A stretch of DNA of 64,000 bases from a virus (Duplodnaviria; Heunggongvirae; Uroviricota; Caudoviricetes). The stretch lies in the IMG/VR virus record IMGVR_UViG_2913147268_000005; one strand, written 5' to 3'. This document shows, piece after piece, positions 3,001 through 6,000 of this stretch (position 1 is its first letter; every line of letters starts with the position of its first letter). Position numbers: made by a program.

Positions 3001-6000
3001 CGCCAGCACATCCACAATGACGCGCATTACGCCAGCCTGATGGCGGTTATTCGTGAAAAGGAAGAAACACTGAAACAACGCGTGATCCGCGCGCTGGCGG
3101 TTTTTTCGGGTTACGGGCGGGTGATGGTTGTCGGTGGAGGGGCGGAGATTGTGGCACCCGCTATCCGCGAAGTCTGCGGAGTTAATGCGACTTTCATCGC
3201 GGACGGGGTGCCACAGTTTGCTCTGGTTAATGGGCTGTACGCAATGGACAAGGAGTAAACCAATGACGACACCAACCAGACGGATAAGTTTCTATCTGAA
3301 GCCCGCCGCCGTCAAGAGTGAACAGGAGGCGTGCAATTACCTCGATAGCCTGCCAGCCTCCGAACGCAGCCGCGCGCAACGCGCGGCCTTTCTGGCTGGG
3401 CTAGCGCTCATAAAGCGCAACCCAGCATTTGCCTACTGGATGGCCGAATGGCCAGAGGACAACCTCCCCTTCAATACCGTTAGCATCAAGGAAACATACC
3501 AGGATAATCAGCCTAGCGGAGTTGAATGCAATTTTTATAAAATAAAAAAGAATATTCAGACCTTATTCCCAGAATAATCTGATAATTGTATGTGAACTAA
3601 TAAAATACAGACCAACACATCATTCTGGCACCCTTGCTAACAGGGTGCCAATGTTTCAAATCATGATGAAATTGCCGAAGTTTTTTTATCGTGCTGAAGT
3701 ACCGCAAATGCCATTAAAACCTCAAGAGAATAGCGGCGATAATACTTAACAAAACCATAATAAAATACTCGGGATGCAGCAATACAAAACAAGAGAAGAA
3801 AACAAAAAGGTAACAGTCTGATATTTATATCTATTAAAAAGGATAGAAGGAGCAGGAACATAAGCAACCAGACTGAAGCGAGAAAAACAAATGTAATGTT
3901 TCTACAAAAACCATACAAAGCAACATAGTTTTGCATTTTCACCTGATGATTTTTAGAATGTTCATACACATAATGATAAGCAAGGCGAAAAAGATCGCCC
4001 CTCAAGCCCTTACGTCGATATAGCGTAGATACAGAAAAAACATTTATATAACCATCTCGTATTTGCGGCCAAAAGACTTTAATAAGTATAGAATGCAGTG
4101 TGGTTTTATGATGTTCTGCTTTATCAAAAGCTGATACAGGAAATAAAAAAACTCCACGAATAAAATTAACTATACTGAACTTAGTATTATGTCGTTTTAT
4201 TTTCAGGGAGCTTCTTTTAGAAAACAGATAAATTGAAGGATACCCAAGTTTACTGTTCATGTATTTTTCAATTAAACAGGATGATAGAATAGATATGAAG
4301 TGACCTGAAATATATGATAGAACGATTAATACCACATATATAAATACACTTATTATTTCTTTATATTTCAGGATATGGTTAAGAATACCTTCTATATAAA
4401 CAGGGTTAATTTCAATAGAAAACAAAAAAAGGATAAACAGGAATAACCCACCTGGAATTAGATAGCCCAAAAAGTCATAAAATGAAAACGGATTCTGTGT
4501 CACACTTCCCCCTGTGTTACTTGTAAATTAAAGGGTAAAACATTATTTGTTTTTCCGTAAAGGATTAGCTTTCCATCTTCTTACTAACCATTCGAATTCT
4601 TGATATGTAGTATCCGAATTAATGCTTTCTCTGATTGCTTTAATTAATGGCTCGGCAATATCATATGTCTCTACAACTGTTGTGTAAGATGTTCTTTTTA
4701 TCATTTTTTCATCATAAATACCTTCACGAATACTTACAGCAACTCGCTCGTAAAAATTTAAAATATATTGAAATTTTCGACGCTCGGCCATTTCTTCATC
4801 TGTTATTATGCAACCATCACAAGGAAAAACATAAGAACGAAATGATTTGCCTGAACGATGCACTTGTTTCAGGGTATGCAATGACTCTATATATTGCATA
4901 TCTTGCCGACTCTCAAAAAGAAAGTTGGCCGTTTGAGTTTTTTTTGCGGTACGCACATTGTAGATAATGGTTCCAATGGCAACCAAAACGCCAAGCAGAA
5001 CAATAGCATTGCTGATGATTTGTAGTGTTATTGGGTTCATCCTATTTCATCCATAAAAAAGGCGGGGAGCAAATCCCCGCCTCATTAGAGGTCAACGTAG
5101 CTTAGAAACCATCAAATTCATCATACATTTTTTTCATATCAACCCCCTCATAGAAATCATAACCACGTTTTGTGGTTTTTGTGACGTATAAACTACATCA
5201 AAGGCAAGCCACGGTCAAATATATAGGCATGCTTACCTGCACAAAAGTGCACAAATTTGCACAATTTTTTTGAACGACTTTTTACCCTTCCGGCCCGCAT
5301 GGCGGCTGGATCCGTCAAGGATCCGTGCGTGCACAAAAAAACGCGCTTTTTCTGCGCGCAGGTGACGGGGGAACAGCCCGCGTTTCAGGGGGTAAATAGC
5401 ATTCCCTGAACGATGTCGCAGAGACACAACAGAATGGCCATATTTCTCACGCTGAGCATGAAAAAGGCGTGAGGGCTTTTGATTTGATGGGGTGAAAGGT
5501 AAGGCCGTCAAAATCGCACTGAGGCAGCGAGAACATGCAGTCAACGCGGTGGAATTGCGTAAGAGTCTGACCGTCGATGGTGGCGATAAACTGGAAGGCG
5601 TCGTGAAATTATCTGATTGATACAGGAGCTGGAGAGCCGGGGCATAAATTTTTTATGCCCCGGCGAAGCAGCAGACAAGCGAAGCGCGTCAGCGATACGG
5701 CACCTTGCCGACCATACTTCATAAGTGCAAAATACGAGCAAAGAAATCAATGGAGGCTGTCTTATGGTCATTAATTACAAGCAGTTAAGAGAAAAACGGG
5801 AGCAGGTAAAGGAGAGCTTTCGCCGCAATGAAGATCTGACCCCGCTTGTACGCCTTGCCCAGGGCATTGTTGATGCTTATGAAATCTCGCTGGAGCTGCC
5901 ATCACAGACCTGGACAGATAGCGACGGTAATCGCCAGCATTACGTTTCATGCGGACTGGAAGCAGCCGAAGGATTTCGCAGAATGCCTTTATCCCAGATC

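Follow-up and report, generated by a model that had tools for sequence, protein, structure and literature searches.

Gene Content and Genomic Position of the Cassette

The window analysed here was the whole 64,000-nucleotide (nt) stretch of a virus (Caudoviricetes) in the IMG/VR record IMGVR_UViG_2913147268_000005. The element under study was a cassette of two neighbouring genes, which encode membrane proteins of 165 and 280 amino acids (aa), together with the leader of the first gene. The analysis was computational and was carried out from the sequence, with all positions given in the numbering of the whole stretch (Table 1). The 165-aa gene was followed after 39 nt by the 280-aa gene. The GC content was 0.29–0.36 over positions 3600–4950 and 0.50–0.60 on both sides, with the genes at about 30% and the flanks at about 55%. 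Both open reading frames (ORFs) are genuine and did not arise by chance, because 30%-GC DNA is unlikely to contain long ORFs and each protein is a member of a conserved family. The original prediction, made for this DNA from the sequence alone, had described two co-oriented, AT-rich genes whose products carried one and four transmembrane (TM) helices, and the ORF calls, the hydropathy profiles and the base composition agreed with this description.

In the P88-like (Xuanwuvirus) prophage, the cassette had gpA/ParMR on one side and cos/portal Q on the other. The region was 100% identical to the Peduoviridae phages vB_EcoM-705R2 and 569R5 and to an ST131 'P88-like' prophage record, and the flanks matched P88/Xuanwuvirus genomes. 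The gpA–gpQ interval is the main defence hotspot of P2-like phages (Rousset et al., 2022, PMC9122126; 2026 NAR survey, PMC13586616), and the placement of the cassette in this accessory slot was upheld. A comparison of the interval among P2-like phages showed that its content was variable, and P88 had two different, unrelated plus-strand genes at the same place. In about one-fifth of P2 elements, the slot holds only unknown genes (PMC9122126, PMC13586616).

The complete 2.3-kb stretch, with an identical cassette, was found in 289 of 5426 complete Escherichia coli genomes (about 5%), and many of the carrier genomes were labelled ST131 or O25b:H4. The cassette had been taken for an undescribed one, a claim that did not survive the literature search. 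The exact protein set (WP_001068329, which is the DUF4760 protein, ParM, ParR, WP_000193205 and WP_000236495) was entered at least 197 times in Table S5 of Rousset et al. (2022). The locus is common, already catalogued and uncharacterised, and DUF4760 was absent from the table of tested systems in the same study.

Table 1. Positions of the features of the cassette, its leader and its flanks in the window.
Feature	Position	Strand	Remarks
Promoter-like site	5156..5185	-	-35 GTCACA, 18-nt spacer, -10 TATGAT; consensus scan
Palindrome AACCAC-AAAA-CGTGGTT	5177..5161	-	In promoter spacer
Mini-ORF Shine-Dalgarno (SD) sequence GAGGGGG	5143..5149	-	Kept in every leader as GGAGG or GGGGG
Mini-ORF MKKMYDEFDGF	5102..5137	-	11 codons and stop
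Box TTGACCTCT (consensus TAACCTCT)	5087..5095	-	Complementary to mini-ORF SD region
Intrinsic terminator	5055..5083	-	Stem GAGGCGGGGA/TCCCCGCCTT, loop TTTGC, then T-run
Box ATGGATGAAA	5045..5054	-	Between T-run and DUF4760 start; conserved in most leaders
165-aa protein gene (DUF4760)	5040..4543	-	ATG start; membrane-anchored N-terminus and cytoplasmic all-helical domain (predicted)
280-aa protein gene	4503..3661	-	GTG start, SD GGGGGAAG; predicted four-TM inner-membrane protein with large basic cytoplasmic loop
Hairpin TGGCACCCT-gttagca-AGGGTGCCA	3626..3650	.	Between convergent 280-aa and ParR-like genes; read from sequence
gpA, replication gene	33..2222		Pfam Phage_GPA
ParM/StbA actin-like ATPase	2299..3258
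ParR/StbB-like protein	..3577
187-aa ORF	5725..6288	+	phrog_5091; no Pfam family
Portal Q	7349..6303
Large terminase	9100..7349

Independent Distribution of the Two Genes

The two genes are independent, horizontally mobile single-gene units that are stacked in one slot. At 20 representative-genome loci of DUF4760, no homologue of the 280-aa protein occurred within 8 kb (0/20). Among the viral loci in IMG/VR, the 280-aa gene was missing from 38 of 47 DUF4760 loci, and DUF4760 was missing from 67 of 76 loci of the 280-aa family. All nine co-occurrences (9/47 and 9/76) belonged to the lineage of the window itself, at 96% identity or more. A sibling P88-like phage, with gpA 98% and ParM 99% identical, carried a DUF4760 unit of 78% identity alone and directly beside ParR, and the alignment with this phage resolved the leader and DUF4760 as a discrete, replaceable block. 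The homologues of the 280-aa protein with 44–45% identity, from E. coli and Enterobacter, stood alone in lambdoid prophages next to xis/int, and the more distant members stood alone in varied chromosomal contexts. No conserved partner gene was seen for either family at the loci examined. P2-type gpA, portal or terminase markers were found at 29 of the 47 viral DUF4760 loci, and DUF4760 is a recurrent cargo of the gpA–gpQ slot. It also occurred as a low-GC islet of one gene amid housekeeping genes.

The original prediction regarded both membrane proteins as the components of one obligate anti-phage or abortive-infection system. The genes are adjacent and co-oriented, only 39 nt apart and both of low GC, and the pair has been kept at 96% identity or more in the 289 E. 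coli genomes. Nevertheless, the co-occurrence was restricted to one near-identical lineage, and each family was widespread alone, without a conserved partner. The two-gene module was not borne out by these counts, and an obligate two-component system is very improbable.

A further homologue of the 280-aa protein, with 34% identity, was located in an array of short co-oriented ORFs (L032:4900-5000 and surroundings). The ORFs of this array were preceded by GTTRRRY-type sites (GTTAGGC, GTTAGAT), and the locus is probably an integron gene cassette.

Conserved Leader of the DUF4760 Gene

According to the alignment of the upstream regions, the DUF4760 gene was preceded in all contexts by an SD sequence, a mini-ORF of 8–21 codons and, usually, a terminator with a G+C-rich hairpin. 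This leader was found from Enterobacterales to phages of Pseudomonas, Acinetobacter and Alteromonas. The peptide consensus of the mini-ORF was M-K-K-x-[FY]-D-E-[FY]-[DE]-[GW]-[FL]-stop, and the spacer behind it often contained TAACCTCT. The geometry was fixed, with 35–41 nt from the stop codon to the T-run and about 18 nt from the T-run to the ATG. The sequence on the 5' side of the SD could not be aligned among the DUF4760 loci. Hence, the mobile unit starts at the SD and ends with DUF4760, and the promoters of these units appear to be local. In the window, the spacer of the promoter-like site contained a palindrome, which may serve as an operator. A GTCACA...ACCAC-N5-GTGGT-like arrangement was also aligned upstream of DUF4760 in other P2-like loci. 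The palindrome ACCAC-N4/5-GTGGT was observed upstream of DUF4760 in the P2-like phages L010 and L045 as well. A P2 late-promoter element, TGT-N12-ACA (5197..5180), was considered and attributed to chance, since its distance was wrong and it was not conserved in relatives.

The mini-ORF was present upstream of DUF4760 in 32 distinct nucleotide versions. At positions -6/-5, Asp/Glu were invariant, and the codons were mixed (GAT 21/GAC 9; GAA 14/GAG 16). Over the last six codons, the pairwise codon differences were 944 synonymous versus 440 nonsynonymous. These values provide evidence that the mini-ORF is translated and selected at the peptide level. The mini-ORF was kept where the identity of the DUF4760 proteins was only 26–37%: in Pseudomonas phage D14E, whose gene directly follows cI, it ended in ...REEYEGI-stop and had a terminator behind it; Acinetobacter phage BUCTT20 had ...NEGWDF-stop and a terminator, next to int; and Alteromonas phage P24 had ...DGWDDI-stop, also next to int. 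The box ATGGATGAAA was considered as a second, coupled upstream ORF and was ruled out, because its frame relative to the DUF4760 ATG varied among loci; it may be an RNA or DNA signal.

The terminator hairpin of the window (GAGGCGGGGAtttgcTCCCCGCCTT) had 10 pairs, 7 of them G-C, and its T-run ended 18 nt before the DUF4760 ATG, which confirmed the terminator-like hairpin that had been predicted about 20 nt upstream of the start codon. Over the aligned leaders, 93% of the cells of the stem were paired, and 3 pairs carried compensatory changes. When the window leader was folded to minimum free energy, the SD was base-paired to the CCTCT box that follows the mini-ORF. Over 19 leaders, 75.9% of the cells of this SD/anti-SD pairing were paired, and 4 pairs were changed on both sides; the overall pairing was 83%, compared with 62% or less in slid controls. 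The conservation of this pairing is suggestive only. The terminator probability was about 1 in most of roughly 30 leaders, whether or not the SD and the mini-ORF were masked. No competing antiterminator fold was predicted, and RNAalifold yielded the terminator only. The leader had the SD and the short ORF upstream of an intrinsic terminator before the gene, as in an attenuator, but not the mutually exclusive antiterminator. Of the expression by read-through or attenuation that had been proposed, the need for read-through stood, given a terminator ahead of the ATG, and classical attenuation was not supported. Rfam contained no family for the leader, and the matches to SorX and caiA were below threshold. 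At the locus L023, the peptide was kept and the strong terminator was absent.

The first unit comprises the SD, the mini-ORF, the strong terminator and DUF4760, and it is self-contained. The sequence features suggest the following course of expression. Transcription would start from the weak sigma-70-like promoter at 5185..5156, most transcripts would stop at 5055, and DUF4760 mRNA would be made only by read-through of the terminator. As a consequence, the amount of protein would stand in a low and fixed ratio to the mini-ORF transcript, or the protein would be produced only upon relief of termination. The second unit, the Csx27-like 280-aa gene 39 nt downstream, would probably be co-transcribed in the rare read-through transcripts, which would end near 3650..3626. 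The low GC content would favour silencing by H-NS.

The tiny ORF followed by an intrinsic terminator resembles the mccA–terminator–mccB arrangement of microcin C, in which it keeps the mRNA of the peptide far more abundant than that of the enzyme (PMC4231749). The two leaders share a tiny ORF (7 codons in mccA and 8–21 in the DUF4760 leader), a strong SD and an intrinsic terminator; in both, the downstream genes would be reached by read-through only, and the SD region interacts with leader RNA, as predicted here and as described for mcc (PMC4231749). In mcc, RNA on the 5' side attenuates the terminator, which is restored once a ribosome binds, whereas the terminator of the DUF4760 leader was predicted to be stable either way. 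Moreover, the downstream product is a peptide-adenylating enzyme in mcc and a membrane protein here, and the peptide ends with Asn in mcc and with Phe here.

The leader suggests a different pairing, in which DUF4760 would be a membrane toxin, of which little is made beyond the terminator, and the acidic-aromatic peptide of the mini-ORF its antitoxin or ligand, labile but plentiful. Such a selfish unit, working by addiction or abortive infection, would stabilise the prophage or the islet, with or without a defence benefit. The sequence of the peptide, and not just its translation, was conserved across gammaproteobacterial lineages, with a length of 8–21 aa. The terminator would give the high peptide-to-protein mRNA ratio known from mccA/mccB, and the lack of a predicted antiterminator fold and the retention of the peptide without a strong terminator at L023 are consistent with this arrangement. 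The solo low-GC islets among core genes resemble the distribution of toxin–antitoxin genes, and the unit of the window adjoins the ParMR partition locus. Of the traits of a toxin–antitoxin module, the order of the genes and the ratio at which they would be expressed fit. On the other side, IS421 splits the mini-ORF from DUF4760 in viable strains, in which the gene could equally be silent, and the same motif was also found without DUF4760. A peptide–toxin pair is unlikely, and it is the strongest competitor of the favoured reading.

The mini-ORF could instead be a purely cis-acting leader. Its nascent, acidic-aromatic C-terminus would affect the ribosome at the stop codon and thereby read-through or downstream translation, and a disturbance of translation, such as a takeover of the cell by a phage or an altered Mg2+ level, would induce DUF4760; such control would be compatible with a defence role. 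The conservation of the last six codons with a variable N-terminal length is typical of arrest peptides, and the pairing of the SD with the downstream anti-SD box and the fixed geometry of the leader fit this possibility. Mini-ORFs with FDEFDGF-stop and hairpins also precede other phage genes. Nevertheless, no alternative RNA fold competed with the terminator, no known arrest motif matched, and the stop codon was 17–22 nt before the hairpin, a distance over which, judging from the size of the ribosome footprint, a stalled ribosome would not open the stem. A purely cis-acting leader is unlikely on balance.

An insertion of IS421 was observed inside the terminator hairpin, in the loop (window 5063-5075), with a 13-bp target duplication (GGGATTTGCTCCC). 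It was carried by three complete E. coli records (LS4, two records; one ST131 isolate) and by two IMG/VR contigs (insertion loci L162:1990-3360; L042, L087). The insertion parts the promoter, the mini-ORF and the 5' arm from DUF4760.

Occurrence of the Peptide Motif beyond DUF4760

Exact matches to DNA encoding FDEFDGF-stop were found at 41 places in IMG/VR, where by our estimate fewer than one would be expected by chance. Of these, 32 lay 53–73 nt upstream of a DUF4760 gene, and the other nine were small ORFs elsewhere, mostly with a hairpin close downstream. Four T4-like contigs (L169, L172, L173 and L181) had a 21-codon ORF and a hairpin 64 nt before a gene for an SbcD/gp47-like nuclease, two lambdoid contigs (L165 and L179) had MLDEFEGFDEFDGF between a Q-like gene and the lysis genes, and the remaining three were singletons (L168, L187 and L191). 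The presence of the motif without DUF4760 suggests that its meaning is independent of DUF4760 and lies either in an effect on the terminating ribosome or in a peptide with a target of its own. The C-terminus of the mini-peptide (...F-D-E-F-D-G-F-COOH) resembles the acidic, Phe-ended tail of SSB (...F-D-D-D-I-P-F), a likeness that serves as a lead only.

Family and Predicted Fold of the 165-aa Protein

The 165-aa protein matched the Pfam family DUF4760 (PF15956) with an E-value of 1.8e-34 and 119.3 bits against a cut-off of 25. Residues 12–156 were aligned to model positions 2–141 of 141, which makes the match full-length. No domain had been recognised in either protein by the original prediction, whereas the DUF4760 and Csx27 models matched them. 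The homologues of the DUF4760 protein were 60–88% identical across Enterobacterales genera. In PHROGs, the cassette proteins matched phrog_2284 and phrog_12528 (E about 1e-72), the latter being the 280-aa protein. Pfam, NCBIfam and PHROGs gave no functional annotation beyond DUF4760 and PHROGs of 'unknown function', a literature search for DUF4760 returned no relevant paper, and no characterised non-defence function was found for either protein. The distant homologues stood at accessory, moron-type sites, either directly after cI (Pseudomonas phage) or beside int (Acinetobacter and Alteromonas phages).

The hydropathy profile contained one TM helix (about residues 8–26) followed by a basic stretch, and the positive-inside rule predicted an N-terminal anchor with a cytoplasmic domain. 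The AlphaFold2 (AF2) model had a pLDDT of 92.3 and consisted of a long N-terminal helix and a helical bundle. In the Foldseek search, EDS1-family entries were the sole targets with a query TM-score of 0.55–0.58 (probability 0.54–0.97), at E-values that were not significant. A fold search of the viral structure library BFVD gave no informative match. The EDS1-family match presumably falls in the EP domain, because the query consists of helices only, whereas the lipase-like half of these plant proteins is an alpha/beta fold. The predicted EP-like fold is a fold-level lead and not a family membership. The all-helical predicted fold may resemble the EP domain of EDS1/PAD4/SAG101, the part of these plant proteins that perceives nucleotide signals made by TIR enzymes; by contrast, the phage protein has only 165 aa and a TM anchor, and no sequence homology, N-terminal lipase-like domain or heterodimeric partner was found. 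The PDB sequence-profile search with the DUF4760 family alignment gave no match at E 10, no TIR match was present among the neighbouring proteins, and no literature on bacterial EP-like domains was found.

On the basis of this model, DUF4760 might be a prokaryotic or phage counterpart of the EP domain of the EDS1 family that acts as a membrane-tethered receptor. Its ligand would be a nucleotide-derived signal or a Phe-terminated acidic peptide, and the mini-peptide could fill the binding site of the receptor, with a membrane response set off by a phage SSB-type tail or by the loss of the peptide. We regard this receptor as a long shot. If it were true, the EP domain would join the immune modules common to bacteria and eukaryotes, and a new peptide-gated, single-gene defence would be defined.

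Relation of the 280-aa Protein to Csx27

The hydropathy profile of the 280-aa protein contained TM helices at about residues 12–30, 44–68, 196–224 and 229–250, with which the AF2 helices agreed. The K/R-rich loop at 78–202 (about 125 aa) had 21 K+R versus 6 D+E, and the positive-inside rule placed both termini and this loop in the cytoplasm. Pfam and NCBIfam had no family for the protein. A family of 1105 cluster representatives (50% identity, E ≤ 1e-3) was assembled, mostly of 270–300 aa with end-to-end matches, and its invariant polar residues included D10, S74, E79, H177, H186, R201 and K253.

The PADLOC model of Csx27 matched the 280-aa protein with an E-value of 1.1e-5, and residues 6–244 were aligned to model positions 4–179 of 206. 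The same model was matched by 44 of 60 diverse family members, with a best E-value of 1.3e-8 and modest scores, and the related tm_4 model by 13 of the 60 sampled members. No comparable match of the family members to Pfam membrane families was found, and the PDB sequence-profile search with the family alignment gave no match at E 10. Csx27 is a four-TM accessory protein of type VI-B1 CRISPR-Cas13b; it represses interference by Cas13b, and a role as a channel for single-stranded DNA has been proposed (PMC11662929, PMC7642515). Four predicted TM helices are common to both proteins, and the profile similarity covers nearly the whole protein. The 280-aa protein differs in its larger size and in its cytoplasmic loop of about 125 aa, and its family is solo, in prophages, islets and probably integron cassettes. 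Neither cas13b nor a CRISPR array was present beside the 280-aa gene, where the neighbours were DUF4760, ParMR, cos and portal, and no cas genes adjoined the solo homologues examined.

Possible Function of the Two Proteins

The reading favoured here is that each protein separately excludes or aborts infection by other phages at the inner membrane, with a probability of roughly one half. This reading is based on the location in the hotspot, the rex-like and int-adjacent positions of the distant homologues and the patchy horizontal distribution. Lambda RexB, P22 SieA/SieB and T4 Imm are small inner-membrane exclusion or abortive-infection proteins at accessory sites. The cassette proteins resemble them in position and topology only, with no homology detected; one distant DUF4760 homologue lies directly after cI, as rexAB does. 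Compared with P2 tin/old, DUF4238, DprA-PRTase and 2TM-1TM-TIR (PMC9122126), the slot, the low-GC accessory character and the likely expression from the prophage are alike, whereas there is no sequence similarity and PADLOC gave no match.

Several results weigh against phage exclusion. PADLOC-DB 2.0.0 gave no significant match to a protein of a validated system; the matches were to Csx27, which is a CRISPR accessory protein and not an effector, and, at marginal E-values, to PDC-S35 (0.014) and PprPIWI (0.056). The chromosomal copies of DUF4760 stood mostly among housekeeping genes and not in defence islands, and only a few defence matches were found among the 115 neighbouring proteins. The AF2 model of the 280-aa protein, built from 15 sequences, was poor (pLDDT 57). 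The lambdoid homologues of this protein lie in the early-left region by xis/int and may have a role in the lytic cycle. In addition, Rousset et al. assayed 8 additional systems from the P2 hotspot, and just 3 of them gave protection (PMC9122126). Enrichment in defence islands was weak around chromosomal DUF4760.

The proteins may instead serve lysogenic conversion, membrane physiology or the cycle of the phage itself, such as the control of DNA entry and exit or the timing of lysis. The cargo of the hotspot also includes partition systems and cytolethal distending toxin (PMC9122126), and the Csx27 family has been proposed to be nucleic-acid channels tied to DNA uptake (Makarova 2019, as relayed in PMC7642515). 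The early-operon position of the lambdoid 280-aa homologues and the chromosomal DUF4760 loci outside defence islands point in the same direction. However, neither gene belongs to the conserved P2/P88 core, P88 and many relatives are without them, and a patchy horizontal distribution with low GC is typical of conflict genes. A role outside defence is considered distinctly unlikely.

Whichever function applies, we could find no description of the mini-ORF/terminator/DUF4760 unit, of its EP-like predicted fold or of the similarity between the 280-aa family and the Csx27 model. The unit represents a compact and widely distributed regulatory design. The EP-like fold and the Csx27 link each tie an uncharacterised phage protein to a studied immune component, and either link, if confirmed, would open a first way to the function of DUF4760 or of the wider Csx27 family. 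Untested genes in the gpA–gpQ hotspot often turn out to be defence systems, and the present cassette occurs there in many ST131 genomes.

Flanking Features

The hairpin at 3626..3650 was not called by the terminator scan, as a T-run was absent, and it is likely to be the end of both convergent transcripts, from the 280-aa and the ParR-like genes. The ParM/ParR (StbA/StbB) plasmid-partition pair (2299-3577) sits between gpA and the cassette, and a partition system is present in about one-quarter of P2-like phages (Rousset et al., 2022, PMC9122126). A phage-plasmid, as prompted by ParMR, was ruled out: of the 1619 E. coli matches to positions 3400–5700, a query that reaches into the ParR-like gene at its 3' end, 1617 were chromosomal.

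The 187-aa ORF, between cos and portal Q, is a further variable accessory gene of the gpA–gpQ hotspot, because it was present in some relatives and missing from P88. An ORF of 42 aa at 5492-5620 on the plus strand was conserved and is annotated in P88 as gp22. It was followed in the cos-proximal region by a bidirectional hairpin (GCCGGGGCATAAAAAATTTATGCCCCGGC) at 5625-5650. The deposited linear P88-like genomes start at about window position 5283.

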